From the IMG/VR virus record IMGVR_UViG_3300033475_000035: a stretch of 50,910 nucleotides of DNA; one strand, 5' to 3'. Shown piece by piece: positions 4,776 to 50,910 of this stretch. Numbering within the stretch: position 1 is the stretch's first letter; every line of letters starts with the position of its first letter. The position numbers were made by a program, and so were the translations under genes. This DNA comes from a virus. The notes beneath the pieces are model-generated. The model ran no database searches, had not been told where the DNA came from, and saw only the letters and a program-made list of their open reading frames with translations.

Positions 4776-4825
4776 GAAATGTAATAATGGACTTTAATTA
4801 AATCAGAATTGATATAGGTGGAAAA

Positions 4826-9901: not shown

Positions 9902-9976
9902 ATGGAAATAAAATTTAGGGCCTGGGTGAAACCCCTGGACAAGTTGATGCGGGAAGTTATAAATGAAACCATTTAA
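9902..9976 (+). pseudogene. 24-codon remnant resembling a YopX-family N-terminus
   Basis: AGGAGG RBS then MEIKFRAWVKPLDKLMREVINETI and a stop. IKFRAW is the typical YopX N-terminal motif. Confidence 0.35.
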
Positions 9977-10868: not shown

Positions 10869-10883
10869 GGAAATAGGCTCAAT

Positions 10884-11255: not shown

Positions 11256-11487
11256 CCCATTTGAAACATATGAAATGAGAGTTTTCCTAACTCTAATGCG
11301 GCATAAGAGAGATTTTTACATAAAAGAAAGGAATAGAATATCATATAGCATGTTTCGTTTCTTAAACCCATTCTATAAAATGCAAATGAAATTCCTAAAT
11401 AGCATAATCTGGGATATGGATGAGATTATTCTTTACATAGAAAAAGAGCAGGCAAAAGCTAAGCATGCACAGGTTAGATCTCCTTAA
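11248..11487 (+). CDS. Hypothetical protein
   Basis: GAGGTGG RBS before ATG 11248. Confidence 0.5.
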   Translation: MVSPFETYEMRVFLTLMRHKRDFYIKERNRISYSMFRFLNPFYKMQMKFLNSIIWDMDEIILYIEKEQAKAKHAQVRSP

Positions 11488-11699
11488 TCTAGCTTAAAAT
11501 ATTTAATTAGGTCTTGTTTTCTTACATACCATAAGTACCCGTTTCCTGTTCGAGGCACTGCAATTTTCTGACATGGGAAGCACCCTCTGTTGTAATAACC
11601 TCTGAGGGAAGTTCCTGTTTGGCATATTCCATATGTTTCATAGAGCCACTTGGCTGCTTCTGATAAAGTAAGCTTATCTTCTGATGGTAACTTGCTCAT
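11484..11699 (-). CDS. Excisionase/AlpA-like HTH protein, divergent from the XRE gene
   Basis: LTLSEAAKWLYETYG...WYVRKQDLIKYF. Same architecture as 3862-4065. Confidence 0.6.
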   Translation of the reverse strand: MSKLPSEDKLTLSEAAKWLYETYGICQTGTSLRGYYNRGCFPCQKIAVPRTGNGYLWYVRKQDLIKYFKLD

Positions 11700-11749
11700 G
11701 TTTTATTTCCAGCATATTACAGAATAATTCTAGTTACAGACGGGTGTGT

Positions 11750-11790
11750 TGTCAATATGATGTCAATTTTATTGATAAGAGAATTGATAA
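11750..11790. promoter_or_regulatory. Four phased operator-like half-sites in the divergent intergenic region
   Basis: TGTCAAT at 11750 and 11761. ATTGATAA, the near reverse complement, at 11771 and 11783. Spacing is 10-12 bp. Confidence 0.45.
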
Positions 11791-11833
11791 TTTAATTTTT
11801 TCTGCTATTATTAAAAATTTTAAGGGGGAAGGT

Positions 11834-12178
11834 ATGAGAAAATCAAACAAGTTGAACATTGGTAAAAATATTCGTAGTCTTAGGATTAGGGCCGGGCTTA
11901 CTATTAATGATTTGGCCACAAGGATAGGTGTGACTCATTCATGTCTTCTAGGTCTTGAGAACAGGGCGATGCCTGCTGCGATAAAGAGATTAGATCAAAT
12001 CGCCAATGAGCTTGGGGTTGGGCTTCTAGATATTATTGATGTAGAAAAGAGTAGTATTAAAGAAAGCAATGATTCTTTGTTTTTTGCGAAATGGTCTATT
12101 TTAAAAAAATTATCTAAAAAGGATGCTAAGTTGTTATTAATGATTGCCGAGAAAATTGCCTTGAATAGCAAAAAATAG
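11834..12178 (+). CDS. XRE/Cro-CI-family HTH transcriptional regulator
   Basis: GGGGGAAGG RBS. IGKNIRSLRIRAGLTINDLATRIGVTHSCLLGLENR is a classic HTH_3 pattern. Confidence 0.8.
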   Translation: MRKSNKLNIGKNIRSLRIRAGLTINDLATRIGVTHSCLLGLENRAMPAAIKRLDQIANELGVGLLDIIDVEKSSIKESNDSLFFAKWSILKKLSKKDAKLLLMIAEKIALNSKK

Positions 12179-12205
12179 TAAGGTTTAATATAGGAGGATT
12201 AAGAG

Positions 12206-12655
12206 GTGGGGCCATCATTTTCCGAAATAAATCAGGATTCGGTTGAAAAATTCTTAAATAATGAAACTGATTTGTATATTTATCTGAGTCAGGTTGAAGG
12301 CGTAGTCAGTCCGTTATTCGATAATACTTTCATAACAAAAGTAAGTGTTACAGGTTATTGTAAGCTAACTGATGAGCATCGAAGACCTGATATTTTTGCA
12401 GATGCTCCTGGGATGATTATTATTAGTGCATACAAGCTTGAAATCTTTGCCCGTGATTCTGTCTATCCTAAAGCATGGAGTACCAATAAGAAGGATAATT
12501 TCTTTAGGCCCCTTGTTTATTATGATAAGGATGCGGTCTTGAATAAGAGATATGCTCTACATCCTGTAAAAGATGAGTTTGGTGTAACGTGCTATAGCTA
12601 TGCTATTACGCAAAAAATGCTGTTTATTGAAGATGAGGAGATATTAAATGATTGA
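12206..12655 (+). CDS. Hypothetical protein
   Basis: AGGAGG 8 nt before GTG. Confidence 0.6.
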   Translation: MGPSFSEINQDSVEKFLNNETDLYIYLSQVEGVVSPLFDNTFITKVSVTGYCKLTDEHRRPDIFADAPGMIIISAYKLEIFARDSVYPKAWSTNKKDNFFRPLVYYDKDAVLNKRYALHPVKDEFGVTCYSYAITQKMLFIEDEEILND

Positions 12656-12839
12656 ATGGGTTTATGTGATTTTCTTGAGCACTCCTGGGTCAGGCGGTAT
12701 GGAGGCCATTCCTATGGCAACACAAGCTGCTTGTATACAGGCTTTGCGTGAGCAGCATAAGGTGAGTGGTTTTGGTAAACACATTGATGATTTTTGCATA
12801 AACTCTAAAACTGGAAAAATAATAAAAAAAGATGATTAA
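12648..12839 (+). CDS. Small hypothetical protein (hydrophobic N-terminus)
   Basis: GAGGAG RBS and overlapping start. Confidence 0.5.
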   Translation: MIEWVYVIFLSTPGSGGMEAIPMATQAACIQALREQHKVSGFGKHIDDFCINSKTGKIIKKDD

Positions 12840-12993
12840 TACATTAATCGAGTTACAGAATAGAATAAGAAATAGGATTTTTGAGTGGGAAGAGTCTCAT
12901 GTATTTTATACTAGTGATATAGTTCAGGGGTTGCAGGAAGCTTCTGACATAATTGATGACATGCTAAAGGAGTTAAAGAAATATGAGCGATAA
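12832..12993 (+). CDS. Small hypothetical protein (53 aa), not in the ORF track
   Basis: Manual translation is MINTLIELQNRIRNRIFEWEESHVFYTSDIVQGLQEASDIIDDMLKELKKYER. It overlaps both neighbouring genes in typical operon style and fills a gap. Confidence 0.35.
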   Translation: MINTLIELQNRIRNRIFEWEESHVFYTSDIVQGLQEASDIIDDMLKELKKYER

Positions 12994-13492
12994 TATAAGT
13001 ATTGGAAGTGAAAGGGTTAGAGCTGCTTTCAATCCAAGTGGGAATGATATGGTAACTATTCTTAAGGAACAAACAGCTGTCTTGATTGATCACTGCGAAG
13101 CGTTGAAAAGACTAGATGGTCGTCTTGCGTCTTTAGCTCAAACAGCTTATGAGGAAGCATGCATGTGGGCAGTTAAAGCAGCTACAACTCAACCAAATGG
13201 CTTCCCTGTGCGTAATCCAGATAATTTTCATATTACACAGTCTGTAGATGACCAAGATTTTCATGATGTATGGATAGATGTTACTGAGCGGTTACCAATG
13301 CCTAACCAAGTTGTGCTGGTGTTGGGTGAGAATTATGAAGGCACGCGGCCTTTTACAGCTAGATATTATGAGGTTGAGAAGCAAATAGATTGGTTCTCTA
13401 ATACCGACCGTGCTCCAATTTCCAATGTGACGCATTGGATGCCCGTTCCATCGATATCATCGCATAGGATAAGGATAAAAAAGGATGAGTGA
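12983..13492 (+). CDS. Two-domain protein: an N-terminal helical hairpin (NPSG...MWAVKA motif) plus a C-terminal DUF551-like domain
   Basis: The N-terminus is RVRAAFNPSGNDMVTILKEQTAVLIDHCE...LASLAQTAYEEACMWAVKAAT. The C-terminus is WIDVTERLP...VLVL...NVTHWMPVP. Confidence 0.7.
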   Translation: MSDNISIGSERVRAAFNPSGNDMVTILKEQTAVLIDHCEALKRLDGRLASLAQTAYEEACMWAVKAATTQPNGFPVRNPDNFHITQSVDDQDFHDVWIDVTERLPMPNQVVLVLGENYEGTRPFTARYYEVEKQIDWFSNTDRAPISNVTHWMPVPSISSHRIRIKKDE

Positions 13493-13570
13493 TCTCTACT
13501 TTATATAAAAGGTGAGGCTAAATACTATCCTGAATGAAGAAGATTAAATAAAGTTAAACAGAGGTACTGT

Positions 13571-14044
13571 ATGAAACCATTTAATTTACAGGAAGCTTTA
13601 GCAGGTAAGCCCGTGGGTACTCGGGACGGAAGGAAGGTTCTTAATATTGCTTGTTATACCTCTCCTGAGACCCTGAGTTTTCCGATAAGAGCCATAATTG
13701 ATTACCCAGATGGGTTCGAGGCATGTGAGCAACGCTATACCTTAAATGGATGTTATTATATATCTGAGTGCAAATCTGATATGGATTTGTTCATGCAGGA
13801 AGACTTCATTAAGCCAATACTTAAGCCGTTCAATATTGAGCAGGCTATCCACGCTATACATACTGTAACTACTAGGGATGGCAATGGGATTGCAACTCTT
13901 TATTTGCTTGATAGAGAAAAATATGGATTCCCGATCATGGCAGCGCTAAAAGGAGAGCCTAATTTCATGTTTTGGACTATAGACGGGATTTATTATCCAG
14001 GTAAGCAGAGTGGATTGGATTTATTTATATTGGGCCCTGAATGA
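13571..14044 (+). CDS. Tandem two-module KPFNLEEALAG-family protein
   Basis: MKPFNLQEALAGKPVGTRDGRKV...DLFM is followed by LKPFNIEQAIHA..TTRDGNG...DLFI. Confidence 0.7.
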   Translation: MKPFNLQEALAGKPVGTRDGRKVLNIACYTSPETLSFPIRAIIDYPDGFEACEQRYTLNGCYYISECKSDMDLFMQEDFIKPILKPFNIEQAIHAIHTVTTRDGNGIATLYLLDREKYGFPIMAALKGEPNFMFWTIDGIYYPGKQSGLDLFILGPE

Positions 14045-14167
14045 CCTATAAAAATATTTTAGACAATAATTATCAATTTTTATTTGAAATATTTTTTATT
14101 AAGAGCTATTATAAGAGTGTAGTGCTAGTAGTTTACTTTCAACAACATATCATAATCGGAGATAGTT

Positions 14168-14527
14168 ATGACCGTAGAAATTTTAGAATCCCAAAAAAGA
14201 TGTAGAGAAACTCTTGTAAAAATGAATAATACGTTGACAGCGTATCAGACTTATCGAATATCTGCAGAGGCTCTTATTAATTATACTGAGGCTAGTCAGG
14301 AGTTTAGAGCTGATATAGAGAAGATAAAGAAAGGATTAGCAGAGTTAAAGAGTACAAGAGAATCAAATACTCTTATTTTTTCTAACTGGCTTGAAGAGAG
14401 GAAGCAAAGGTTTAAGCCAAATCCACGCTCCTTTATCCCGCAAATGGAAAAAGAGACTCTTCCTAAGTCTAATAATTCATCAAATGGAACTTGGTGGAGT
14501 AGATGGACTAGAATGTTTGGTTTGTAA
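14168..14527 (+). CDS. Hypothetical coiled-coil protein in a self-contained cassette (own promoter-like element and terminator)
   Basis: TTGAAA-17-TATTAT lies upstream (about 14085-14113) and a hairpin lies downstream. Confidence 0.6.
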   Translation: MTVEILESQKRCRETLVKMNNTLTAYQTYRISAEALINYTEASQEFRADIEKIKKGLAELKSTRESNTLIFSNWLEERKQRFKPNPRSFIPQMEKETLPKSNNSSNGTWWSRWTRMFGL

Positions 14528-14539
14528 TAGGTAATTCTC

Positions 14540-14571
14540 ATTGCACCAGTATGTATATTTGCTGGTGCAAT
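14540..14571 (+). terminator. Hairpin terminator candidate
   Basis: ATTGCACCAG, 12-nt loop, CTGGTGCAAT, then atcttt. Confidence 0.5.
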
Positions 14572-14594
14572 ATCTTTAATAAAGAGCTTCAATC

Positions 14595-14768
14595 ATGAAA
14601 ATTCAAGAATGGATTTCCTATGGGAAATTTATAGATGACAATAAGATGTTTAGAAGGCCAAGGGCTAATGCATCAGTAAGTCCTGAGGGTAAAAGTGTTG
14701 ATGTAAAAGCCTATCAAGATAATAAAGATAAGGTATTGCTCTCTCTAAAGCAAAGTAATAAGAGTTAG
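14595..14768 (+). CDS. Possible small ORF (57 aa) upstream of the sigma-4 gene
   Basis: Open frame MKIQEWISYGKFIDDNKMF... with a weak RBS. Confidence 0.25.
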   Translation: MKIQEWISYGKFIDDNKMFRRPRANASVSPEGKSVDVKAYQDNKDKVLLSLKQSNKS

Positions 14769-14772
14769 CGCA

Positions 14773-15396
14773 ATGACATTTGAAAAGGAATATAGAGTAA
14801 AGATTGGGGTAAGAAATAATCTTATACTGAGAAAAATTGAAGGACTTGGTTGTAAGAGCGTTAGTGAGTTTTGCAGAGTATATAATTTGAGCGCAACCCT
14901 TGTGAATTCTATTATAGCAATGACCCTCTCTCCTTTAACTTCTTCTGGATTCCCCCGCCGCATAGTGCAGGAGCTTCTTGATATATTTAATTGTGGTTTG
15001 GATGATTTATTTACTGAAAATCAAATTAATACCAAGCTTGAGCATTCCACCCGTCAAGTGGAGGTTTCTGAGACGGAAGCCGCTTATTATCTGCAGTCTC
15101 AATCATATAATATTGTTGAAAATATGCTTGAACATGAGTCTCAGGAGATAATCGATAAGCAAATTTTTGGTCATCTTGGTAGTCTGTCACCAAGAGAGCA
15201 ATTAGTAATTAAGGCTAGATTTGGACTTGATGGGAATCCTGAGCAAACCCTTGCTGAAATAGCAAAAGAACAAAGATTGAGCATGGAAAGAATTAGGGGT
15301 ATTGAAGCTAGAGCATTAAGAAAGCTGAGATGGAGGTTTTGTAGAGAGAGTGGCTTAGTGCATCACCCTTGGGGTAGATTTACAACATCTTATTAA
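14773..15396 (+). CDS. Sigma-70 region-4 domain protein with an N-terminal HTH. No recognisable region 2.
   Basis: LSPREQLVIKARFGLDGNPEQTLAEIAKEQRLSMERIRGIEARALRKLR matches sigma-70 region 4 (LTPREEKVLRMRFGI....TLEEVG..F.VTRERIRQIEAKALRKLR). Confidence 0.8.
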   Translation: MTFEKEYRVKIGVRNNLILRKIEGLGCKSVSEFCRVYNLSATLVNSIIAMTLSPLTSSGFPRRIVQELLDIFNCGLDDLFTENQINTKLEHSTRQVEVSETEAAYYLQSQSYNIVENMLEHESQEIIDKQIFGHLGSLSPREQLVIKARFGLDGNPEQTLAEIAKEQRLSMERIRGIEARALRKLRWRFCRESGLVHHPWGRFTTSY

Positions 15397-15424
15397 AAAT
15401 CAGATACATAAAAGGATCAAATTT

Positions 15425-15760
15425 ATGAACAATTGGATAGAAAAGGATGCATTGGGTCTGCTATATGAAGCGATAGAAATTGAAAATAAAATGCCTGAGC
15501 AGGGTGAATGGGTATTGGTAGTTGCACAGATCTCTGAAGATCTTCCTAAGGAAATTTTTATAGCCCGCTGGATTGAAGATCTTATCAGGTTTGACCCTAG
15601 AACAGGATATGGAGAAACTGTATGGTCTACACATACTTGTGAGCGTATCATTAACGTAACTCATTGGATGCCACTTGGAAATATGCCAATGGTCGATGCA
15701 AAAGTCGCATCCTTTGTAAGTTGTAAAGCATGCTGTCCGTCCGAGGTCGTAAAAGAATAA
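15425..15760 (+). CDS. DUF551-like protein
   Basis: WIE...MPEQGEWVLVV...VTHWMPLGNMP. Confidence 0.7.
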   Translation: MNNWIEKDALGLLYEAIEIENKMPEQGEWVLVVAQISEDLPKEIFIARWIEDLIRFDPRTGYGETVWSTHTCERIINVTHWMPLGNMPMVDAKVASFVSCKACCPSEVVKE

Positions 15761-15948
15761 CGCCCTTTGGTTTGAAGGCTATTGGTAAATTCTTTTGTTT
15801 TCATAGAGTACCTTTTGTGTTAAAACTTATCCAGCATGTCATTTTTCGACTTTTTAATCAACTTTTAACACATTTTTGCAAGCATTTTTCGAAGCCTGTT
15901 TTGCGTTAGGAGAGATATACAGCTATAAAAAAAGATGAGGTATTAAAT

Positions 15949-16668
15949 ATGAAATGGATAAGGACAATAGAAGAGTATCCTCTTGATGCGGAAGAAGACC
16001 TTGTTGTCCGTAATATATTTGGTAAGTATGAGATTGCCACATATAGGCGCATGGGTGGAAAAGGAGTATGGCTTATTGGTTCATCCATAGTGGATGATGA
16101 GATGATATATGCTTGGATGAGAATCCCGTTAGTAGATGCGATTCCCCTGGAAAAGGTTGTTGATTTGATGATTGAAGATGGTAGTAGTTATTCTAAGGAG
16201 TTTGATACGCACTCGGGCGCTGTCCAGAGAATGTTAAACGTATTGCGTGATTGTGGGATAATATATTTAGATCAATTAAATAATATCGATTTGATAAATC
16301 TTATTAAGACTCCTAATGTAGGGATTGCAATAATACGCCTATTAATTCTTATTATGAAGCGTTATAAGATAAAATCTTATCAGGAGTCTATTATTGAGAA
16401 CATTGATGAACATCCTATTACTCTTAATAAATTTATAGATATCTTATTTTTATACCCCGAAAAAATTCTTGCCACTGAACTCGCTAGGAAAGAGCTAGAG
16501 GACACGGGGAAAGCCAAGATTATGGCTACGTTGAGGAAATTAGGAATGAGTTCCTTAAAAGATTTAAAGAGCTTAACCATACGTCAATTAAATCGGATGA
16601 TTAAGCACGACTATCCAGGAAATAGGGTTATCAAATCGGTAGCGGAATATTTAAACCGCAAGAATTAA
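15949..16668 (+). CDS. DUF551-like N-terminus plus two RNAP alpha-CTD-like helix-hairpin-helix modules. TerS candidate by position only.
   Basis: N-terminus: KWIRTIEEYP...YAWMRIP. HhH modules: MLNVLRDCGIIYLDQL...LIKTPNVG and MATLRKLGMSSLKDLKSLTIRQL. Compare alpha-CTD SANCLKAENIHYIGDL...LLKTPNLG. Confidence 0.65.
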   Translation: MKWIRTIEEYPLDAEEDLVVRNIFGKYEIATYRRMGGKGVWLIGSSIVDDEMIYAWMRIPLVDAIPLEKVVDLMIEDGSSYSKEFDTHSGAVQRMLNVLRDCGIIYLDQLNNIDLINLIKTPNVGIAIIRLLILIMKRYKIKSYQESIIENIDEHPITLNKFIDILFLYPEKILATELARKELEDTGKAKIMATLRKLGMSSLKDLKSLTIRQLNRMIKHDYPGNRVIKSVAEYLNRKN

Positions 16669-16755
16669 ATCATTCACCTATCCTCCTTTTAACGTTTGGC
16701 CTATATTGATTCAATACTGAATTATTGATAGCCTCGGTTGATAACTGAGGCGTCT

Positions 16756-18285
16756 ATGAAACCAGCACCAATCACTTTAGATATATCGAACAAAATAAAA
16801 CGCATTAATTTTATTAACGAGAGCCCCTTGAATGCTCGAGCGGCATCGATTTTCTATTCTAGAAATCCCATCAACTTTATTAACGACTTTTGCATGACTT
16901 ATGACCCTAGGCAAAAAACAAAGGTCATGCCATTTCTTTTATACCCAAGACAGCGTGAATATATCCAATGGCTACATGATAAATATGTTACCAAGCAAGA
17001 TGGGTGTGTACTTAAGTGTCGTGATGTTGGCGCCTCATGGCTGAACTGTGCATTTGCTGTTTGGATGTGGTTATTCGTAGAAAACTCCACCATTACTTTC
17101 ATCTCTAGGAAAGAAGATTATGTCGATAAGATTGGGGACCTACGCTCCATCCTGGAGAAATGTCGATTTATTATTTCTAACCTTCCTCCTTTTTTCATGC
17201 CGGCTGAGAAAAATAAGTTAATTCGTCATCACTTGAAATTTAAATTGTTAATAAATCCAAAAAATGGCTCTTCAATAGTAGGCGAGTCAGGCGATGAAGC
17301 GGGCCGTGGTGGTCGTTCAACATTAATATTTGGCGATGAATTTGCCTTCATTCCTAGGGATGAAAAAGTAGAGGCAGCAATATCCCAAAACTCTGATGTC
17401 AAAATATATGTCTCAACACCAAATGGCTGCAGAGGAGTTTTTTACAATAAGATAGACAAGGGTGTTGTTGATGTATTTTATTTCAAATGGCATCAAGACC
17501 CGCGTAAAACACCGGAATGGTACGATGAGCAAAAGCGCAAACTAGATCCAGTAATATTTGCACAAGAGATAGAGGGCGATTTCTTTGCTTCTACTGACAT
17601 GATTTGCATTCCCCGCAAATATATTGAGGCAGCAATTAATTTCAAATTAGCAAAAACCGGTAAGAAAATTGCTGGCCTTGATGTGGCGGATGAGGGGGGT
17701 GATAAGAACGCACTCGTTATCCGTCACGGGTATGTGGTGGAGTCTATAACCGCATGGGAGCATGGCGATACCACAATGACAGCCAGGCGCGCAAGTGTTT
17801 CAGCGTCCGCATCTAGCGTGGATATTATAAATTATGATAGCGTTGGTGTGGGAGCTGGCGTCAAAGGCGAATTTAATTCTCTGAAGAAGAACGGGCAGTT
17901 GAAGATAGCTGTAAATGGGGTGAATACCGGTCAGCCTCCCACCAACAGGCGATATGAAAATACCGATAAATTGAATTCCGAGATGTTTCTTAATCTGAAA
18001 GCAGAGCTTTGGTGGAAATCTCGTCGCAGATTTGAAAAAACATACGAAAAAGTTAACGGCATTAAGGATTGGCCAGATGATGAGCTTATTAGCATTCCTG
18101 ATGATAAAGAGCTTATTACCGAGCTTTGTCAGCTGAAGTACGATTTTGAAGATGACGGAAGAATTAGAATCGAGTCTAAGAAGCAAATGGCAAGCCGAGG
18201 GATAAAATCTCCAAACAAAGCCGACGCGTTCATGTTGGCATTTTCATGGGCAGAAGAAAGAGGTGTTCGAGCTAGAGCATTATGA
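16756..18285 (+). CDS. terL: Terminase large subunit
   Basis: 515-aa class ORF upstream of the portal gene. Walker-like LKCRDVGASW and STLIFGDEFAF, plus a C-terminal nuclease-like half. TTG 16738 is an alternative start. Confidence 0.9.
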   Translation: MKPAPITLDISNKIKRINFINESPLNARAASIFYSRNPINFINDFCMTYDPRQKTKVMPFLLYPRQREYIQWLHDKYVTKQDGCVLKCRDVGASWLNCAFAVWMWLFVENSTITFISRKEDYVDKIGDLRSILEKCRFIISNLPPFFMPAEKNKLIRHHLKFKLLINPKNGSSIVGESGDEAGRGGRSTLIFGDEFAFIPRDEKVEAAISQNSDVKIYVSTPNGCRGVFYNKIDKGVVDVFYFKWHQDPRKTPEWYDEQKRKLDPVIFAQEIEGDFFASTDMICIPRKYIEAAINFKLAKTGKKIAGLDVADEGGDKNALVIRHGYVVESITAWEHGDTTMTARRASVSASASSVDIINYDSVGVGAGVKGEFNSLKKNGQLKIAVNGVNTGQPPTNRRYENTDKLNSEMFLNLKAELWWKSRRRFEKTYEKVNGIKDWPDDELISIPDDKELITELCQLKYDFEDDGRIRIESKKQMASRGIKSPNKADAFMLAFSWAEERGVRARAL

Positions 18286-19745
18286 TTAATCCATTCAAAA
18301 AAATCTCACAAGTGTTTTCTCGCAAACAAGTTCAAAAAAAGAGCTTCTTATATCCATCAATGGGTGATTCTTTATATCAAAGACTTATATGGTCAGGTTG
18401 GAATATATTAAGCCCCTATATCGCTATTCAATACTATATGCAATGCTCGGTATTAGCAGATGCGATAGATACGATATCAAGAGAAGTTAAATCAATAGAG
18501 CCAGTTATTTTCGACAAAAGAAGAGAGAGATTCATATATTCCCATCCTTTGTTAGACCTATTAGCCTACCCTAATGCAGATGTGGTTTATGAAGAATTCA
18601 TGGAGCGGTTATGTAACTATCGTTACTTAACAGGAAATTCCTACATTATTGCAACAGGGCGTGTGTCAAAACCCCCTTTAGAATTATTTGTGCCATCTCC
18701 ACAAGCAGTATCGCTCGCAATGGGTCGTGATGGATTTACAAGTCAGATAGAGCTTTCTAATCAATATCAAAGCAGAAGCTATAATAGATATGATGTCAAT
18801 GGGCGATTTAAGTATTACGATAAGGATGGTGTTTCAGAAATTTATCATATTCGTTCATTTAATCCTTACTATGGCATCAACCAAAACTATGGCTTATCTG
18901 AACTTGCTGCTATTTATTATGAAGTTGAACAATTTATAGGTGCTTCTCAGCATAATCTCTCCTTAATTTCGCGTGGAGTCAAGACAACAGGCGCATTTTT
19001 ATCTAAAGAACCTCTGAGCGATGACCAGTATCAGAGATTGCAGGAACAAATTAATTCTTTATATGCCGGAGCTTCAAACGCTGGGCGTCCAATTCTATTA
19101 GATGGTGGTGATATAGACTTTCGAGAAATGGGTGTTACGGCACAGGACATGGATTTTGATAAGCTTTATCATCGCACAAGAGATGCTATTTATAATCGCT
19201 TTAAAATACCTTTGGCAGGTGTCACTACTGAAAATATGAAGTACGATAATCTCGAGCAATCGCAGATAATGCTTTATCACAACTGTATTCTTCCAATTGC
19301 CAAGTCTCTGTTCAAAGAAATGAATAATATGCTTGTCTGGCGATACGATGACCTGAAAGATTGTGAACTTACTTTTGATATGGATAGTATTCCTGCCATT
19401 CAAGTCTATCGTATGTATGAAATGAAAAAACTCAAAGAGCTGGGCGCTTATACTATTAATGAAATCAGGGCCTTGCGTGGCGATAAGCCTGTGCAAGGTG
19501 GTGATGTTATCCTTGCAGCTCAAAATAATGTTCCAGTTGCTCGTGATACCAATCAGGAAACATACGTCCAACCTGCTGATGATACCCCACCTGATTCACC
19601 CAAGGGTAATGTGTTTTTATTGCAACATGCTAAAGACAAGCGAGATATATTTATGGAATCGGTATCAAAAATACAAGATGGAACGGGTAGGTCAAAATAT
19701 AGTCAAGAAGATATACGGAAACTAGCTGATAAATTTGAGATTTAG
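18282..19745 (+). CDS. Portal protein
   Basis: 487 aa, with an ATGA overlap to terL. Position and size are typical. Confidence 0.85.
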   Translation: MINPFKKISQVFSRKQVQKKSFLYPSMGDSLYQRLIWSGWNILSPYIAIQYYMQCSVLADAIDTISREVKSIEPVIFDKRRERFIYSHPLLDLLAYPNADVVYEEFMERLCNYRYLTGNSYIIATGRVSKPPLELFVPSPQAVSLAMGRDGFTSQIELSNQYQSRSYNRYDVNGRFKYYDKDGVSEIYHIRSFNPYYGINQNYGLSELAAIYYEVEQFIGASQHNLSLISRGVKTTGAFLSKEPLSDDQYQRLQEQINSLYAGASNAGRPILLDGGDIDFREMGVTAQDMDFDKLYHRTRDAIYNRFKIPLAGVTTENMKYDNLEQSQIMLYHNCILPIAKSLFKEMNNMLVWRYDDLKDCELTFDMDSIPAIQVYRMYEMKKLKELGAYTINEIRALRGDKPVQGGDVILAAQNNVPVARDTNQETYVQPADDTPPDSPKGNVFLLQHAKDKRDIFMESVSKIQDGTGRSKYSQEDIRKLADKFEI

Positions 19746-19746
19746 C

Positions 19747-20589
19747 ATGAGAAGTCTTCGTAGTTATAATAGTAATTCAGACAAAAGGATTGCATCTGCA
19801 GTTAGAGATTTGGCCATAAAATTAAAGTTAGAGCCAAAAATCAAGAGAGAAATGATTAATTTGTTTGATGAGATGGCTACGTATGGGAAAAATCTTTATA
19901 AAAAAGAAAGAAAGATAGCTACTTTTAATGCTTATAAACCTGAATTAGTCTACCTTTTAAAAAATCACTACAAAAGAGTACAGCTAGTTTTCTCTAATCA
20001 AATTAGAGAGGAGGTCGATAAGGTTAGATCTAAAGCTGATGATAGGATGTCGTACCAGATTCAGTATGAATTAGACCGGTACTCAGATGAACAGTCAAAC
20101 CAATCTGCAAATCAAATCATTGAAACATCTAATGAGGAATTCCAAGAGTATATTTTGTCTGCCTATGCCTATTATGCTTCACAAGGGATTATTCCTACGG
20201 AAAAGCAGGTTATAGAAAAGGCTTACGAAGACTTCATGGCTCGCGCACACTCCCGCGCAGAAACTATTGCCATTACTGAAACACAAGGCCCAGCTGAGAA
20301 TGCTAAATATACTGAAGCCCTTCTATTATCATCTATTAGCGCAGGACTTCTTTATGACAGTGTTGTTGAGGCTAAGGTTGGCACCAAATATTGGATGGCT
20401 ATTTTGGATGATCGCACGAGGGAATGGCATGTAGAAGCGGATGGCCAAAAAAGACCTCTTGACCAGCCATTCATTGTGATGGGAGAGAATCTCATGTACC
20501 CAAAAGATACTAGTATGGGTGCATCTGCTGAGAATGTCATCAATTGCAGATGCTCTACAGTATATAAAATGGAAGAAATTTATTATTGA
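19747..20589 (+). CDS. Head morphogenesis protein (Mu F / SPP1 gp7-like)
   Basis: It follows the portal gene. The C-terminal motif ...TREWHVEADGQ...NVINCRCS is typical of the Phage_Mu_F family. Confidence 0.8.
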   Translation: MRSLRSYNSNSDKRIASAVRDLAIKLKLEPKIKREMINLFDEMATYGKNLYKKERKIATFNAYKPELVYLLKNHYKRVQLVFSNQIREEVDKVRSKADDRMSYQIQYELDRYSDEQSNQSANQIIETSNEEFQEYILSAYAYYASQGIIPTEKQVIEKAYEDFMARAHSRAETIAITETQGPAENAKYTEALLLSSISAGLLYDSVVEAKVGTKYWMAILDDRTREWHVEADGQKRPLDQPFIVMGENLMYPKDTSMGASAENVINCRCSTVYKMEEIYY

Positions 20590-20592
20590 TAA

Positions 20593-20793
20593 TTAATTGA
20601 TTTTTATACCTTCAGGAACTTGTTCGAGCAGCTTTAAATATGCAATCGCTCTTGCAGAAGGTCCGTGAGCATAAAATGCTGAGCCTTTACCCTGTCTCGT
20701 ATACCCGCACTTTACAAGAAAATCTAGAAAACATTTAGCGCCAATTTTTTGATATTGAGCTTTCGCTCTTTCTTTAAATTCTTGCTGTTTCAT
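20593..20793 (-). CDS. Hypothetical 66-aa protein on the opposite strand inside the head module
   Basis: GGAG RBS. A TGGAAT-17-TAGAAT promoter-like element lies upstream on the minus strand. Confidence 0.55.
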   Translation of the reverse strand: MKQQEFKERAKAQYQKIGAKCFLDFLVKCGYTRQGKGSAFYAHGPSARAIAYLKLLEQVPEGIKIN

Positions 20794-20952
20794 ATTAACT
20801 CCATTTTTTGACAGGATATTCTATCCCACAAATCACGTAGATTCCAGTATTGACGCATTAACAGCGTAAAAAGTACGCGTTTTTAAATGTTTTCGGATTT
20901 TTATAATAAGTTATTATCTGAGTAATTAATTTATATCCTAAGGAATAATTCG

Positions 20953-21414
20953 ATGACTGCTAACGTTCTAAATTATGTAGATCAACCTGTTACTACTGAT
21001 TTTGGTGACAATGACAATGCTTATAATTTCAATGGCACTGTAAATATTCAAGGCGCCCCTCTTTCATCGAGCGTTAATGGCACATTAATTAACCATGCTG
21101 CAGGGAATAGTAAAGTCACTGTCGTGAACGCATCTAGAACTATTGTGATTGCTGACTTAAAGGCAGTCTTATATTGCATTAACACCCCAGGAATTACTCT
21201 TACATTTGATTTGATTGCCAATTTAGGTGGTGCTGGATTTGAAGTTGAAATTATTGCGGCTGGATCTGGATCTGTAACTGTTGCTGGCACGGATGGTCAA
21301 ACGATTGTTACAACGCTTGGTAGTTCAGTAATTGCCAGCGGTAGTGCAGCAAAATTCGTTGGTGTAGGCCAATCAACAACTTGGTTCGGATTATTTTACG
21401 CGGTCGCAGCTTAA
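20953..21414 (+). CDS. Hypothetical Gly/Thr/Val-rich (beta-rich) protein
   Basis: AAGGA RBS. Sits in the head module. Confidence 0.6.
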   Translation: MTANVLNYVDQPVTTDFGDNDNAYNFNGTVNIQGAPLSSSVNGTLINHAAGNSKVTVVNASRTIVIADLKAVLYCINTPGITLTFDLIANLGGAGFEVEIIAAGSGSVTVAGTDGQTIVTTLGSSVIASGSAAKFVGVGQSTTWFGLFYAVAA

Positions 21415-30657: not shown

Positions 30658-30818
30658 ATGAAGATGATATAGGACTGTTAATAGCTCGTTTAATGGTATT
30701 TTACAAAGGCGCAGTAAGTTATAAAGATTTAAACGAAATGCCATTTTATGAGCTATTAAGATTAAATAAGTACGCATCAAAGATAGCTAAAGAACAAGAG
30801 GCTGCACTAAAAAAATGA
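30208..30818 (+). CDS. Tail assembly chaperone frameshift product (GT-like; slip at 30630-30636)
   Basis: The -1 frame reads FFVTIPDEVDEDDIGLLIARLMVFYKGAVSYKDLNEMPFYELLRLNKYASKIAKEQEAALKK and ends overlapping the tape-measure ATG. This explains the otherwise empty 157-nt gap. Confidence 0.55.
30630..30636 (+). promoter_or_regulatory. Slippery heptamer T_TTT_TTG for a programmed -1 frameshift
   Basis: In-frame codons are cat ttt ttg. The -1 frame is open from here to TGA 30816-30818. Confidence 0.6.
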
Positions 30819-32428
30819 GCGATTTTAAAATATCGTATATTTATGAAGCTGTTGATAAGTTCTCACCGGTTATCAATGATGTCGTAAAGAAAATGGAGAA
30901 CGTAAACAAGCAGATTGATATACAAAATTCAAAAATAAATGTAATGAAGAACAATCTAGGTTCTTTATCATCTGCCTTATCAAGTGCTGGTACTGCATTA
31001 ACGGTGAAATTAACAGCCCCGCTTGTTGCAGCCAGCACTGCATTAGTAGCAGCCGCCGCTGATGTTGAAAAGATTACAGTTAGCTTTTATTCAATGCTAC
31101 ATAGTGTAGAAAAATCTCAGCAACTCTCAAAGCAATTACAAGCCTTCTCCGCAGAAAATGCCTTTAATTTTAACGAAATCCAACTTGCTACCAAAAATCT
31201 TATAAACGCAGGCGTTCCATTTGACCAGTTAATAGAAAAGTTAGCTATGCTGGGAGATATTTCTAAAGGCTCTTTGTACTCTATTGAAAGTTTAGGGCAG
31301 ATAGTGCAACGAACGGCAAGTAAGGGTGTATTGGGCTTGGAAGAGTTAAACAGGCTAGAGGATGCTAGTATTCCAATTACTAAAGAATTGGCAAAACTTT
31401 ATAACATGTCTGAAAAAGACATTCGAAAAGCCATCGGCAAGAATCAGATATCAAGTGCTGGATTTCAGGAGGGTCTGAGAAGGTTAACTACAGAAAGCGG
31501 TCCTTATTTCAACAAGTTAAAGCTTCAGGCCGATACTGTTAGTGGTGCCTTTGGCCAGCTAAAGGGCCAGATTTATTTATCGAGTGCCGCGATTGGCGAG
31601 CAGATAATGGAAGTCTCGGAGTTAAAACAAACTCTCGTGGCATTAAGGGTTAAATTAAAAGATATAACGGTAGCTATGGTTGAGTGGATGGAGCAAAACC
31701 CAGAGCTTACTAAATTAATAATAAAAATAGGATTGGTTGTCGCTGCTCTTGGTCCTGTCCTGATAGGTCTTTCACTAGTAGTGAAAACGGTGAGAATGGC
31801 TACAGTGGCTGTAATAGCGCTAGGTGTGGCATTTAAAGCTCTTTTAAGAAATCCTATCGTTTTGATTTTAACATTAATTGGGGCTTTACTCATTTATCTG
31901 TATCAAAACTCTGAAGACTTCCGTAATTCTGCAAATGCTTTATTCAAGGTTCTTTATATTGGATTTAAAAGCGTATTTGATTTTGTAACGAAATATCAAA
32001 AAGAGATAATGGCATTCTTCGATGCGGTATGGACCGTTGTTATGGCTCCTTTAGAGGCGGCATTGTTTGTTATTAGAACATTAGCTAACGCGCTGCGTGG
32101 GGTTTTTGGTTTATTAACGGGAGCTAATAAAGACTCGGAACAGATTGTTAATAAAGCCAAGAAGATTTCAGCACAAAATCCAGTTTTTGTTAATGAAGTT
32201 AACGCTATGATGGCGCAGGGTCGTGGATTCTCTGTGTCAGAGCAGATAAAATCAAATGCCACGAATTCTTCTATAAATAAACCTGTTGAAGTAAATTCTG
32301 GGGCAAGTATTGATATTAATATAAAAGACCCTGCCAAACTTGTTGAATCAACCAAAACAACTAATAAAAATGCTGACCGTTTAAAAATTAACACGGGCTC
32401 CAATATGCAAATGCAAGGAGCATATTAG
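30815..32428 (+). CDS. Tape measure protein
   Basis: 537 aa with helical, Ala/Leu-rich and hydrophobic segments, in the canonical position. Confidence 0.85.
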   Translation: MSDFKISYIYEAVDKFSPVINDVVKKMENVNKQIDIQNSKINVMKNNLGSLSSALSSAGTALTVKLTAPLVAASTALVAAAADVEKITVSFYSMLHSVEKSQQLSKQLQAFSAENAFNFNEIQLATKNLINAGVPFDQLIEKLAMLGDISKGSLYSIESLGQIVQRTASKGVLGLEELNRLEDASIPITKELAKLYNMSEKDIRKAIGKNQISSAGFQEGLRRLTTESGPYFNKLKLQADTVSGAFGQLKGQIYLSSAAIGEQIMEVSELKQTLVALRVKLKDITVAMVEWMEQNPELTKLIIKIGLVVAALGPVLIGLSLVVKTVRMATVAVIALGVAFKALLRNPIVLILTLIGALLIYLYQNSEDFRNSANALFKVLYIGFKSVFDFVTKYQKEIMAFFDAVWTVVMAPLEAALFVIRTLANALRGVFGLLTGANKDSEQIVNKAKKISAQNPVFVNEVNAMMAQGRGFSVSEQIKSNATNSSINKPVEVNSGASIDINIKDPAKLVESTKTTNKNADRLKINTGSNMQMQGAY

Positions 32429-45930: not shown

Positions 45931-46327
45931 AGCAAGAGTGGATCAGACAGACGTGGTCTTTCCACTTGACGATCGTGTACGTCATTTAGAAACGCAATTT
46001 GCAGTATTACAAAATGATGTGGGCCATGTAGTTGATGGTTTAAATAATTTGGTAGAACAGTTGAAAGAACATACTGAAAAAATTGCTGAATATATCATCC
46101 TCGATAGAAAAGTCATTTCTATCGAGAGTGAGATGACAAGTATAAAAAATGATTTGTCTGAAATAAAAAAGACAGCTCTGATAACCCAGAGTCGGTGGGA
46201 TTTTTTCTCATCTTTGTTTAAAAACCCTCAGCTTTTGATATTCATTACATTTGTTATATTAGCGCTCTCGCCAAATATTGATATTCCCCAAGCATTTGCA
46301 GCGGTATCTAACTTTTTAGCGAAATAA
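45923..46327 (+). CDS. Coiled-coil protein with a single C-terminal TM helix (holin or lysis-associated candidate)
   Basis: The ATG overlaps the upstream stop codon. LLIFITFVILALSP lies near the C-terminus. Abuts the endolysin gene. Confidence 0.5.
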   Translation: MLEARVDQTDVVFPLDDRVRHLETQFAVLQNDVGHVVDGLNNLVEQLKEHTEKIAEYIILDRKVISIESEMTSIKNDLSEIKKTALITQSRWDFFSSLFKNPQLLIFITFVILALSPNIDIPQAFAAVSNFLAK

Positions 46328-46785
46328 TGAAAGCATCCCAAGTTTGTAAAGACTTAATCATTAAATATGAATGCTCGGGAGACGCATTTAAATATTTATG
46401 CGCATATAAATGCCCAGCCGGATATTGGACTATTGGCATAGGATTTACAACCTATGAGGATGGTCAGTATGTACGAGAGGGTGATTGTATTACACCAGAA
46501 AGATGCATGTCACTATTTGAGCATAAGCTTGAAGAATTCGAATCCTGTATAAATAAACTAGTTATTCAACCCACAAATCAAAATCAATTTGATGCATTAG
46601 TTAGTTTTTGCTTCAACATTGGATGTCAAAATTTTAAAGTTAGTACGCTTTTGCAGAAAATAAATAAGAACCCAAATGATCCATCAATTAAAGACGAAAT
46701 AAAGAGATGGATATACGTTCATGGCACTCAAAGCAAAGGACTTATAAATCGAAGAGAAGAGGAAGCTCAATTATATTTTAGATAG
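46327..46785 (+). CDS. Endolysin, GH24 (T4/P22-type lysozyme)
   Basis: YKCPAGYWTIGIGFT and NQNQFDALVSFCFNIG match P22 gp19 YSDSRGIPTIGVGHT and NQNQYDALCSLIFNIG. A Cys occupies the usual Asp position, which is the known D/C variation. Confidence 0.85.
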   Translation: MKASQVCKDLIIKYECSGDAFKYLCAYKCPAGYWTIGIGFTTYEDGQYVREGDCITPERCMSLFEHKLEEFESCINKLVIQPTNQNQFDALVSFCFNIGCQNFKVSTLLQKINKNPNDPSIKDEIKRWIYVHGTQSKGLINRREEEAQLYFR

Positions 46786-46806
46786 CTATCTAATTTAATA
46801 TATAAT

Positions 46807-46834
46807 TTGACCATAAAATATGTGATGGTATAAT
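46807..46834 (+). promoter_or_regulatory. Near-consensus sigma-70 promoter with an extended -10 and no downstream plus-strand ORF
   Basis: TTGACC (46807-46812), 16-nt spacer, TGG-TATAAT (46826-46834). Confidence 0.65.
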
Positions 46835-46840
46835 ACAAAT

Positions 46841-46917
46841 GCGCGTGGCGGAATGCTACTCAAAAACCCTACGGAGTGGTAGTTCGAAGAACTGCTTTAC
46901 ATATAAGCGCCGCCACA
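46841..46917 (+). ncRNA. Candidate small structured RNA with a tRNA-like cloverleaf (not a canonical tRNA)
   Basis: 7-bp closing stem GTGGCGG/CCGCCAC (46845-51 / 46910-16) and a 2-nt linker. Three hairpins follow: 46854-81, 46882-92 and 46893-909. The last has a 5-bp stem and 7-nt loop abutting the 3' strand. The G-U pairs only work on the plus strand. Confidence 0.45.
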
Positions 46918-46927
46918 AGCATTCTTC

Positions 46928-47170
46928 TTATAACTCTCCAGTTACTTTATAGAATGTCCACTCATCTTCTTCTTGGTCAGGAATTTCTGGATAAGGAATA
47001 GGTTCTGAGCCCAATAAAAATTGATTTAATCCCTTTACTATGGCATCTGCTTCATGCTGTTGGCAATCCATTAGTTCTGCAACATGCCTTACTGCTTTAC
47101 CAGTCTCAGCAAAAGCAACTCGAAATCGTTGTTTATTAACGCCCTTTTTATGTTGAATAATATAATACAT
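46928..47170 (-). CDS. Hypothetical protein
   Basis: AAGAGA RBS. 80 aa. Confidence 0.6.
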   Translation of the reverse strand: MYYIIQHKKGVNKQRFRVAFAETGKAVRHVAELMDCQQHEADAIVKGLNQFLLGSEPIPYPEIPDQEEDEWTFYKVTGEL

Positions 47171-47205
47171 AGTTTTCTCTTTAAAATAATTAATAATGAA
47201 TTTTG

Positions 47206-47234
47206 ATAGTATCTTATATCGATCTGGTACGCAA
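47206..47234 (-). promoter_or_regulatory. Sigma-70-like promoter for 46928-47170
   Basis: On the minus strand: TTGCGT-17-TACTAT. Confidence 0.35.
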
Positions 47235-47279
47235 CAAACAGATAACTTACTTATGATTGAAGTGACTGGATTAAAGAAT

Positions 47280-47319
47280 AAAAAAAGCCCGTAGAGCTTT
47301 TTAAGGCAATACGGGCTTT
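47280..47319 (-). terminator. Rho-independent terminator (minus strand)
   Basis: On the minus strand, AAAGCCCGTA, 16-nt loop, TACGGGCTTT, followed by a T7 run. Confidence 0.7.
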
Positions 47320-47409
47320 GTGTACCAGCAGCAAAAGATTATAGCGAGAGAATCTCTTACATAAAGCCAGTACGGATCTGACAGCTTAAGTATACCAAAT
47401 TTCGGTAAT

Positions 47410-48597: not shown

Positions 48598-48618
48598 AAT
48601 ATCTTTATCTCCTAAGAA

Positions 48619-48644
48619 AGCCGCTAGGGAGATAGCTAGCGGCT
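48619..48644 (-). terminator. 9-bp hairpin between the ATPase gene and the downstream gene (attenuator or terminator candidate)
   Basis: AGCCGCTAG ggagatag CTAGCGGCT. Confidence 0.4.
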
Positions 48645-48687
48645 AATAACACCTATAAATGCTATCAATAAAATAATATAATATATA

Positions 48688-49857
48688 TTATATGTTGGCA
48701 ACATTATTTTTTATTTTAAATGCATCAGATGCATTAACCGTTCCACTTAATATGCAATCATAAATCCCTTGTAGATGTTGCACGTCATTATCGTCAAACT
48801 CATCCTGCTTTTTACGTTTAAAGTAAGACACAATGTCATTCTCTTTTATTCCGTATTTAACATAGAGATTAGATATGATATCTTGCTGACCTAAAGGTTT
48901 TTCTTCCTTTTTAACCGATGTTTCGATAGTTATCGGGTCTGAATAAACCTTTAATTCCTTGTCAAAAACAAGGCCAATTCCTTTAGCCCTGTCTCTTATT
49001 AATAACCCCGCTCTATTTTTGGAATCCCATATATTTTCTTCTGAATTAACTAATGTAACAAACTCATTAGCTTCTTTAGCATTTTTAACTAAAGATGCTT
49101 TAAGAGAGTAATCTGACACTAACTGATTATATTTTTTCATCTGCTCAGCTCTTTCTTTTATAGCATCCTCATATTTGCTAAAGATAGTTTCTAAAAGATT
49201 ATTATCTGTTTTATTCTCTGCGTTAACAACATGTATTACTTCTTCTATAGAACACGTATTTTTTCCATAATATCTTTCGCAGGGATCAAAACTAATCGTT
49301 CTCTTCTTTCCATGTGCTTCCATATATCCAACTAAGTCTAATTCCTTGATCAAATCAACAGAGCTAGAGCCTCCAATTTCTGGCCTAAGCACTCGATTAT
49401 CTCCTTCTTTCTCTTCTTTCTCATGTGCAACAAACACAATGTGCTTGCCTAATAACGAGATGGTAGATATAAATCGAGAAAACATCGTTTTTCTAGCGCC
49501 ATATCCTTGTAGAGATAAGCTCCCATCTCTTTTGCCATTTTTAGGGTCTGACTTTATCAGATAGTCACTCATGTGATCTAACATCTTGCCAGCTGTATCA
49601 ATTACTAGTGTCTTATATAACCGAGGGTTTTCCTGAAGATGCTTAACGACATCACAAACCTCAGACCAGCTTTTGACTTGTACTGTGTCATGAAGATGTT
49701 GTTGTTTAACACGATGCGCACCCTTATCAAAATCCAATAAGAGACAATCAGGAGCGGAAAGGGCAAGAGTCGTCTTGCCAATACCGGGTTGTCCATAGAC
49801 AAGCATTCTTATAGTAGTAACCGGCTCAATTTCATGAGGTTTTTTAATTAATTGCAT
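48688..49857 (-). CDS. AAA_24 / Sak4-like RecA-fold ATPase with a long C-terminal extension
   Basis: IRMLVYGQPGIGKTTLALSAP..LLLDFDKGAHRV and TLVIDTAGKM. Confidence 0.8.
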   Translation of the reverse strand: MQLIKKPHEIEPVTTIRMLVYGQPGIGKTTLALSAPDCLLLDFDKGAHRVKQQHLHDTVQVKSWSEVCDVVKHLQENPRLYKTLVIDTAGKMLDHMSDYLIKSDPKNGKRDGSLSLQGYGARKTMFSRFISTISLLGKHIVFVAHEKEEKEGDNRVLRPEIGGSSSVDLIKELDLVGYMEAHGKKRTISFDPCERYYGKNTCSIEEVIHVVNAENKTDNNLLETIFSKYEDAIKERAEQMKKYNQLVSDYSLKASLVKNAKEANEFVTLVNSEENIWDSKNRAGLLIRDRAKGIGLVFDKELKVYSDPITIETSVKKEEKPLGQQDIISNLYVKYGIKENDIVSYFKRKKQDEFDDNDVQHLQGIYDCILSGTVNASDAFKIKNNVANI

Positions 49858-50570: not shown

Positions 50571-50910
50571 TATCTAATTTCCTGGGCGCCAATTTTAGAT
50601 AAAGCATTGTTAATAACTGAAAGCCCAAAAAATTCCTTTTCATCGTCGTCCCAGCCAACAACGGTATTCCTTAAATCATTAATAGTTTTAATACCTTTAT
50701 GAGCAAGGGATTTCTTCATGCCTTCTGGTATATCCAATAGTGAGATAGAAGTAAATAAATCTTCCTCATAATCATCTTTTACCTGGGGTTCTTCGGGGAT
50801 AGGAGCCTCTGAAGAATATTGATCTAACTCTATGCAGGGGTAATCTTCTGGATTTTGCATGTGAAGACTAAAGTCAAGATTATATAAAGCATTAAGTAAT
50901 TCTCTCTTTA
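50570..50910 (-). CDS. 3' part of the junction-spanning gene (true start at 290 after circularisation; 167 aa in total). Carries an alpha-CTD-like HhH C-terminus.
   Basis: ISLLDIPEGMKKSLAHKGIKTINDLRNT. The frame stays open to the window end and continues in 1-290. Confidence 0.7.
   Translation of the reverse strand, partial: KRELLNALYNLDFSLHMQNPEDYPCIELDQYSSEAPIPEEPQVKDDYEEDLFTSISLLDIPEGMKKSLAHKGIKTINDLRNTVVGWDDDEKEFFGLSVINNALSKIGAQEIR
50784..50910. repeat. Exact 127-bp terminal direct repeat, copy 2
   Basis: Identical to 1-127. Confidence 0.95.

Follow-up and report, generated by a model that had tools for sequence, protein, structure and literature searches.

A single 142-bp gap in the phage genome analyzed here (IMG/VR virus record IMGVR_UViG_3300033475_000035; the whole 50,910-nt stretch is hereafter called the window) holds the best match to a sigma-70 promoter in the genome and, just downstream of it, a 72-nt RNA element that is predicted to fold into a four-way junction, or 'cloverleaf'. 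The gap separates the late operon from a convergent gene encoding an 80-residue protein. Our tentative reading, held at somewhat less than even confidence, is that the promoter would drive an antisense RNA with a structured 5' end that represses the 80-residue gene. If transcribed, the locus would constitute a minimal 'moron-like' phage island at the boundary of the late and early operons, in which a strong promoter and a structured RNA are combined with a small orphan protein. The window itself is a circular phage genome of ~50.78 kb that originates from metagenomes, and its bases 1-127 recur at 50784-50910. The features of the locus are as follows, with positions numbered along the window and MFE denoting the minimum free energy fold.

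46327..46785, plus strand: endolysin gene, the last gene of the rightward late operon and the left edge of the intergenic gap (PF00959 Phage_lysozyme, 5e-39; PHROG 7 endolysin, 1.7e-48); its stop codon is 46783-85.
46807..46812, plus strand: -35 hexamer TTGACC, which matches 5 of 6 consensus positions and lies 21 nt past the endolysin stop.
46826..46834, plus strand: extended -10 element TGgTATAAT, in which TATAAT (46829-46834) matches the consensus perfectly and is separated from the -35 by 16 nt.
46841, plus strand: predicted transcription start, a G located 7 nt past the -10 and placed by sigma-70 promoter geometry.
46845..46916, plus strand: the 72-nt four-way-junction element, delineated by folds, as an island of high guanine-cytosine (GC) content, and by a scan of fold topology.
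46845-51 paired with 46910-16, plus strand: closing stem P1, 7 bp, all of them Watson-Crick pairs.
46855-46880, plus strand: hairpin A, 7 bp, with a 12-nt loop at 46862-73 (AAAAACCCUACG) and, in the MFE fold, a 3-nt linker after P1.
46881-46893, plus strand: hairpin B, 5 bp, with a GAA triloop.
46894-46908, plus strand: hairpin C, 4 bp in the MFE fold, with the 7-nt loop UACAUAU at 46898-904.
46928..47170, minus strand: open reading frame (ORF) of the orphan 80-residue protein, convergent with the promoter, which a read-through antisense transcript would cover fully.

The statement of a first-pass annotation that the best promoter of the window follows the endolysin stop, with TTGACC and a 16-nt spacer, agreed with both the sequence and a scan of the genome. 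The site at 46807-46834 was the sole one that combined at least 11 of 12 hexamer matches with the TG of an extended -10. All four of the top-scoring promoter sites in the genome, at 46807(+), 50245(-), 11755(-) and 11784(+), proved to be intergenic. Since intergenic DNA amounts to ~6.6% of the genome, this placement indicates that the promoter is probably real. It also probably drives no convincing plus-strand gene. The annotation had stated that no plus-strand ORF follows the promoter, which holds for credible coding genes but not literally, as a 37-codon ORF lacking a Shine-Dalgarno (SD) sequence opens at ATG 46839, the ATG ending at the predicted +1. A perfect 12-bp palindrome, AGATAGCTATCT, occupies 46780-46791; it overlaps the stop codon of the endolysin gene and lies 16 nt ahead of the -35. 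We considered the palindrome as a possible operator and set this aside, because its other copies in the genome were not above chance.

The predicted transcript would begin at 46841, ~4 nt before the element at 46845, as had been proposed. When folded on the plus strand, the 80 nt from 46841 reached -27.7 kcal/mol (z -3.09), a value equaled by 0 of 200 shuffles, and adopted one well-populated structure that accounted for 22% of the ensemble and stayed in place in longer sequence context. This structure pairs 46841-42 with 46919-20, such that the predicted 5' end is sequestered. The opposite strand of the same 80 nt reached -24.6 kcal/mol (z -1.22), a difference that stems from two G-U pairs in the first hairpin. 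Of the earlier claim that several G-U pairs make the fold specific to the plus strand, the strand bias stood, but the G-U pairs number only two in the MFE fold or three in the geometry described at that time. That geometry comprises a 7-bp stem, a 2-nt linker and three hairpins, the last of which has 5 bp and a 7-nt loop and directly adjoins the 3' strand. It and the MFE fold are isoenergetic: for the 72-nt core the two differ by 0.3 kcal/mol (-24.6 vs -24.9 kcal/mol).

Two further properties set the element apart. Its GC content of 50-51% compares with an intergenic mean of 32% and with 26% in its own flanks, making it the GC-richest intergenic 72-nt stretch. In the topology scan, MFE folds with a cloverleaf shape and a closing stem of 7 bp or more arose about once in the genome per length of scanning window; at a length of 72 the element was the sole such case. 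At -24.9 kcal/mol, compared to approximately -14 kcal/mol for chance cloverleaves at other lengths, it is the most stable cloverleaf-shaped fold in the genome. Three outliers thus fall within 110 nt of scarce non-coding DNA: the top promoter match, the intergenic segment richest in GC, and the cloverleaf of greatest stability. Their coincidence makes it likely that something functional resides at this locus.

The anatomy downstream of the element bears on what that function might be. The rightward (late/lysis) genes end with the endolysin gene, while the leftward operon includes a Sak4-like AAA_24 protein (48688-49857). A scan of the plus strand from 46917 to 47283 for intrinsic terminators found no site, and the first candidate for a transcript end on that strand is a hairpin shared by both strands.

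47284..47319, both strands: hairpin AAAGCCCGUA...UACGGGCUUU, on the minus strand the canonical terminator of the leftward operon with a U7 tail, and on the plus strand a weaker end with UUUGUGU (to 47325).

The folding energy of this hairpin is -20.4 kcal/mol (z -3.9) for the plus strand and -17.8 kcal/mol (z -2.9) for the minus strand. With no earlier terminator, a plus transcript from ~46841, or read-through from the late operon, would cross the entire 80-residue gene in antisense orientation, in keeping with the suggestion of the first-pass annotation that continued transcription would be antisense to 46928-47170. A Rho-dependent stop just past the element is possible but not indicated, the C/G ratio there being 1.2-1.7 (top 14% of windows). 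Since the 80-residue gene lies beyond the strong terminator of the leftward operon and its own promoter-like sites are weak only, the strong convergent promoter would be expected to dominate. On the minus strand at 48598-48687, a compact GC-rich hairpin (~48620-48655) followed by UUUCUU looks like the terminator of the Sak4 gene.

The product of the gene offers few clues. Searches of 5.8 billion and of 1.84 billion proteins returned no homologue of the 80-residue protein, and the neighboring 224-residue protein is likewise an orphan with no homologue found. Residues 8-37 weakly match a thrice-repeated unit of the metagenomic protein P0134 that resembles a helix-turn-helix (HTH) (E 2.4e-4), while the AlphaFold (AF2) model, with a predicted local distance difference test score (pLDDT) of 61, is too poor to use. 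The product may be a small DNA-binding protein of the HTH type, although this is a weak guess.

From the computed promoter match, intergenic placement, fold, antisense geometry and lack of a near plus-strand terminator, we infer a mechanism whose remaining parts, namely that transcription occurs, its start site, its 3' end, its repressive effect and the stabilizing role of the fold, go beyond these computations. The promoter, of the constitutive type recognized by host sigma70, would fire rightwards at ~46841, and the first 72-80 nt would form a compact, GC-rich four-way junction in which the 5' end is buried. Polymerase, meeting no intrinsic terminator, would then read antisense through the 80-residue gene, its ribosome-binding site and its upstream region, and would terminate at the 47284-47325 hairpin, yielding a transcript of ~485 nt, or sooner at stops that depend on a factor. 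Together, this RNA and the act of convergent transcription would lower expression of the gene via formation of RNA duplexes and collision of polymerases. The 5' cloverleaf would act mainly as a stabilizing cap against decay that depends on the 5' end, and its complement would stabilize the 3' end of the opposing mRNA. This mechanism accounts for the promoter, the missing terminator, the strand bias and the location. An antisense RNA of ~0.5 kb fits the anatomy at least as well as does a 72-nt product, which is one possibility.

Promoter-driven antisense or small RNAs at phage operon boundaries are of a familiar kind, examples being lambda OOP, P1/P7 C4 and P22 sar, and the element is best described as a single-sequence prediction of that kind (an antisense or small regulatory RNA). 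Lambda OOP, a defined 77-nt RNA, is provided with an intrinsic terminator of its own, and its overlap with cII is confined to the 3' end of that gene. As in OOP and other cis-antisense RNAs of temperate phages, a constitutive-looking promoter stands convergent with a small, regulator-like gene at an operon boundary, and the RNA would pair with the mRNA of that gene. In contrast to OOP, a near terminator is missing here, the structured portion is situated outside the gene, and the overlap would span the gene in full. Measured by the features that define an OOP-type RNA, the locus has its own convergent promoter and no terminator before the gene, so that the predicted transcript would be expected to overlap it.

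We searched several collections for relatives of the element. No match was found by blastn among 50,697 GenBank phage records and 72,556 PLSDB plasmids. Exact 17-18-mers taken from three parts of the RNA yielded chance matches only in IMG/VR and the JGI metagenomes, as judged by alignments and a covariance model. A pattern built on the closing stem produced more than 120 GC-rich chance matches, the best of which scored 24 bits with the covariance model, a score biased by the pattern itself. A pattern of the loops only, with stems left free so as to capture covarying relatives, matched nothing, either in 185,579 species genomes or in metagenomes. Finally, a covariance model (R1) run over ~1.4 Mb of fetched loci, including 89 endolysin neighborhoods (78 viral and 11 genomic), loci neighboring Sak4 genes and a relative with a 75%-identical tail gene (L089), recovered only the element itself. 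The nearest endolysin relatives were ~51% identical, and relatives of the neighboring proteins showed no synteny in the region of the element.

The relative L089 warrants a separate remark. Its interval 10862-21128 is the closest relative of the structural module, with the tail protein 75% identical, and its tail-fibre gene is followed directly by prohead protease and capsid-like genes, with no lysis cassette. For this reason, the region of the window that contains the lysis genes, the RNA and the orphan gene has no counterpart in L089.

Fragments of the phage genome were also recovered from three other samples. Four of them (L084, L234, L235 and L239) were 100% identical to the window where they overlapped it, and only one spans the RNA; a fifth (L236) had four mismatches and two gaps relative to the window, far from the RNA. 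No homologue was found in any collection searched and the copies are identical, which for covariation amounts to an absence of data rather than to evidence against the structure. In sample 3300037473, the end of L084 (46942) and the start of L234 (46933) overlap by 10 nt close to the element. A cos site or genome end near 46933-46942 was considered and rejected: other contig junctions of that sample are gaps of 92 and 55 nt, occurring roughly every 3 kb, so that the contig ends at 46933-46942 look like low coverage rather than a physical end.

Several findings weigh against an antisense RNA with a structured 5' end. A site with at least 11 of 12 hexamer matches plus the TG arises in 15% of first-order Markov-shuffled genomes. 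The stability of the fold is unremarkable once adjusted for GC content (z -2.6, top 1% of 80-nt windows), and regression of MFE on GC identified 71 loci, mostly inside genes, that equal or exceed it in stability. As a singleton whose other copies are identical to it, the element provides no covariation and no evidence of purifying selection. On the plus strand the 47284-47319 hairpin, the candidate 3' end of the transcript, has a poor U-tract. Finally, the elaborate four-way junction is left unexplained, as a simple 5' hairpin would suffice as a stabilizer.

Some of these same findings speak for coincidence, that is, a chance promoter beside a chance GC-rich inverted repeat, or else a promoter serving a leaderless 37-residue peptide from ATG 46839. 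The frequency of equally good promoters among shuffles, the 71 comparable folds, the recurrence of cloverleaf-shaped MFE folds at about one per scanning length and the lack of evidence for conservation are all compatible with chance, and the 37-codon ORF is compatible with its peptide variant. We nevertheless consider coincidence unlikely, as it requires three independent outliers to meet within 110 nt of scarce intergenic DNA. The peptide variant faces the added difficulties that the ATG lies only 4 nt past the -10, which makes a leaderless start exactly at its A geometrically unfavorable, and that a 37-residue peptide has no homologue context.

Convergent stop codons flank the element on either side, a position at which a terminator would be anticipated, and this raises the alternative that it is a non-canonical bidirectional terminator, or a protector of the 3' ends of the endolysin and 80-residue mRNAs, with the promoter being unrelated or non-functional. 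No other terminator follows the endolysin gene, and when read on the minus strand the stem lengthens to 10 bp, with one mismatch, ahead of AUUUGUAUUAU. Nonetheless, the terminator scan called the element on neither strand, its 58-nt branched interior is unlike the compact terminators of this phage at 47284-47319(-) and ~48620-48655(-), and on the plus strand no U-tract abuts the stem (AAGCAUUC...). The plus strand, moreover, has the better fold (z -3.1 vs -1.2), and this alternative would leave unexplained why the top promoter match of the genome is placed 4 nt upstream. We therefore judge this alternative to be improbable.

The leading rival to an antisense RNA is a short, stand-alone structured RNA of ~72-80 nt resembling C4, which we regard as conceivable but doubtful. 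According to PMC5320573 and PMC11143913 (the latter citing Hartmann 1995), C4 is an RNA of ~77 nt, and RNase P cleavage takes place at the 5' end of the P1 stem. Under this alternative, the closing stem and the 3'-proximal hairpin (7 + 4-5 bp, with a 7-nt loop) would mimic the acceptor/T minihelix of a transfer RNA (tRNA), RNase P would cut 5' of G46845, the 3' end would be trimmed to the base of the stem, and the product would act in trans via the loop AAAAACCCUACG. The likeness to C4 of P1/P7 (RF01695; the CI RNA of P4 is a related idea) is one of size and shape: both are phage RNAs of ~72-77 nt in which a closing stem joins the two ends and surrounds internal hairpins with exposed loops (for C4, PMC5320573 and PMC11143913). 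Each, moreover, closely follows a promoter and could be cut out of a longer RNA, and the minihelix-like stack of the element could be an RNase P substrate, its 7/5/7 geometry being isoenergetic with the MFE fold. In contrast, the Rfam model of C4 and those of all other families were silent at E<=10, the element has three internal hairpins compared to two in C4, it lacks a 3' RCCA, the UACAUAU loop of hairpin C is not a T-loop, and, unlike in c4-icd-ant, no co-directional target gene lies downstream.

The 12-nt loop of hairpin A plus a closing base has a 13-nt complement, CGUGGGGUUUUUG, at 32095-32107(+), which includes one G-U pair and lies inside a 537-residue gene (30815-32428). The duplex of -20.8 kcal/mol would favor a trans-acting RNA, but it falls in a coding region and within the range of shuffled loops: the best duplexes of 40 such loops had a mean of -16.8 kcal/mol (standard deviation 1.65, minimum -21.5), making the observed value borderline. 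Matches to the loop with at most 2 mismatches occurred at chance frequency. No significant complementarity between loop and target was found for the element, which differs in this respect from C4, whose loops are complementary to sites at the ribosome-binding sites of genes transcribed together with it further downstream.

In favor of a C4-like RNA, the early region shows no integrase-sized gene and a weak RepA-like match is present, a loose parallel to P1 with its plasmid lifestyle. The match is to a 229-residue protein (457-1146, plus strand), which shows weak HTH_Crp_2/HTH_36 matches and a weak precomputed match to IncFII_repA. With that match and no integrase in the early region, the phage may be maintained as a phage-plasmid. 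An attP at the locus is unlikely for a related reason, as the early region has neither an integrase-sized ORF nor an integrase domain.

The first-pass annotation had described the element as tRNA-like. This description applies to the outline only. ARAGORN in its default mode predicted 0 tRNA or transfer-messenger RNA (tmRNA) genes in the window, and a search against 4227 Rfam families found no match at gathering scores; these were among the checks that the annotation had proposed, and neither identified a tRNA or a known family at the element. Even at E<=10, Rfam returned only two irrelevant fragments between 46700 and 47000, both outside the element, with no match to the tRNA clan. This negative result rules out assignment to the families of C4, YrlA, tmRNA, the known riboswitches and the small ribozymes, and by these searches the element is of no known sequence family.

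The annotation had correctly stated that the D-loop GG, the T-loop consensus and a 3' CCA are missing. Compared to the T-loop U54-U55-C56-R57-A58, the last loop, UACAUAU, has an A at position 55 and a U at position 58. The stems come closer, with a 7-bp acceptor-like stem and a T-like arm of 4 bp (MFE) or 5 bp (the isoenergetic alternative). The first arm, in contrast, has 7-8 bp and a 12-nt loop (AAAAACCCUACG) devoid of GG, where a D arm would have 3-4 bp and G18G19. The middle arm carries a GAA triloop and, if opened to 7 nt, would place a C rather than U33 at position 33, and there is no variable region. A tRNA identity is thus ruled out by ARAGORN, by Rfam and by the missing signatures of the D-, T- and anticodon loops. 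The same features separate the element from tRNA-like bacterial RNAs such as the YrlA Y RNAs (PMC4201824), with which it shares the 72-nt cloverleaf outline, a terminal stem of 7 bp and, stacked on it, a last arm that bears a 7-nt loop. A Pfam scan of 30 early-region and 10 neighboring ORFs, which left aside the structural genes, turned up no Ro60/Rsr domain.

A degenerate or non-decoding gene derived from a tRNA, serving as a tRNA mimic or decoy, could retain such an outline, the 7-bp terminal stem and a promoter of its own. When relaxed to 80%, ARAGORN did report a sub-threshold 'tRNA-Phe(gaa)' of 88 nt, with the region of hairpin B as its anticodon arm. However, this call spans 46818-46905, starting inside the promoter, and does not coincide with the cloverleaf. 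Given also the default ARAGORN and Rfam (E<=10) negatives and the missing arm, loop, variable-region and CCA features, a tRNA-derived gene is very hard to credit. Two odd ARAGORN calls were seen elsewhere, in a related phage contig (L087) whose Sak4 is 52% identical. Both lie upstream of Sak4 on the plus strand: a 'tRNA-Stop' with anticodon tta at 4743-4831 and a tRNA with a 2-nt anticodon call at 4929-5003. These may be suppressor or non-canonical tRNAs.

We also weighed the idea of a new class of phage RNA, promoter-driven, tRNA-shaped and non-decoding, that RNase P would excise via the acceptor/T-like minihelix and that would act as an immunity or decoy RNA, here in a possibly plasmid-like phage with an Hfq and a CsrA of its own. 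Such an RNA might titrate a host tRNA-directed enzyme or a defense nuclease, or might pair with targets through its 12-nt loop. We consider this class highly unlikely.

An interaction with RNA-binding regulators encoded by the phage had been proposed as well, and the homologues on which that proposal depends were confirmed by domain matches.

3556-3819, minus strand: Hfq homologue (PF17209, 2.7e-15).
5753-5968, plus strand: CsrA homologue (PF02599, 4.4e-19).

Two GGA motifs had been put forward as sites that could engage the phage CsrA, but 2 in 72 nt compares with 0.98 expected, and the 487-nt read-through transcript contains 6 compared to ~6.6 expected. One of the two GGA motifs sits at the boundary of a stem and the junction, while the other, an ANGGA (ACGGA), sits at the 3' edge of a loop. 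The presence of a CsrA homologue and of this one ANGGA is reminiscent of CsrB, RsmY and RsmZ; in contrast to the element, those sponge RNAs display many GGA motifs in loops. With its GGA count at chance, a role as CsrA sponge is not indicated and was rejected. The architecture of an Hfq-dependent small RNA was likewise rejected: the terminator scan of the plus strand from 46845 to 47283 found no intrinsic terminator with a 3' U-tail, and the stem is followed by AAGCAUUCUUC. Nothing in the RNA, as judged from its sequence, links the element to the phage Hfq or CsrA.

A phage with two global RNA-binding regulators is nonetheless unusual, which, if the RNA is transcribed, makes the locus a reasonable entry point for asking whether phages that carry their own Hfq and CsrA also bring their own RNA regulators. 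The same genome encodes a stand-alone response-regulator receiver domain protein (1438-1824, plus strand; PF00072, 2e-14).

Other parts of the genome yielded observations of separate interest. On the minus strand, the intergenic region 300-440 forms a strong fold (-37.7 kcal/mol, z -3.6) that includes a 14-bp hairpin. Two of the top-scoring promoter sites, both of them near consensus, point away from each other in the gap at 11700-11834: TTGACA-17-TAGAAT belongs to the minus strand, and TTGATA-16-TATTAT, with a TG, to the plus strand. The gap separates a leftward gene for a 71-residue protein from a CI-like HTH_3 gene, the true start of which is ATG 11835, preceded by the SD sequence AAGGGGGAAGG. 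This gap looks like a lambda-type immunity switch. The protein encoded at 12983-13492 (plus strand) combines an Acb2/Tad1 hairpin domain (6.4e-11) with DUF551, and is a candidate nucleotide sponge of the anti-CBASS or anti-Thoeris type. Lastly, three ORFs open with a common 87-nt module (9964-10050, 10190-10276 and 13572-13658; direct-repeat family D2) at 70-72% identity, which suggests that a few early proteins form a family of paralogues sharing their N-terminus.

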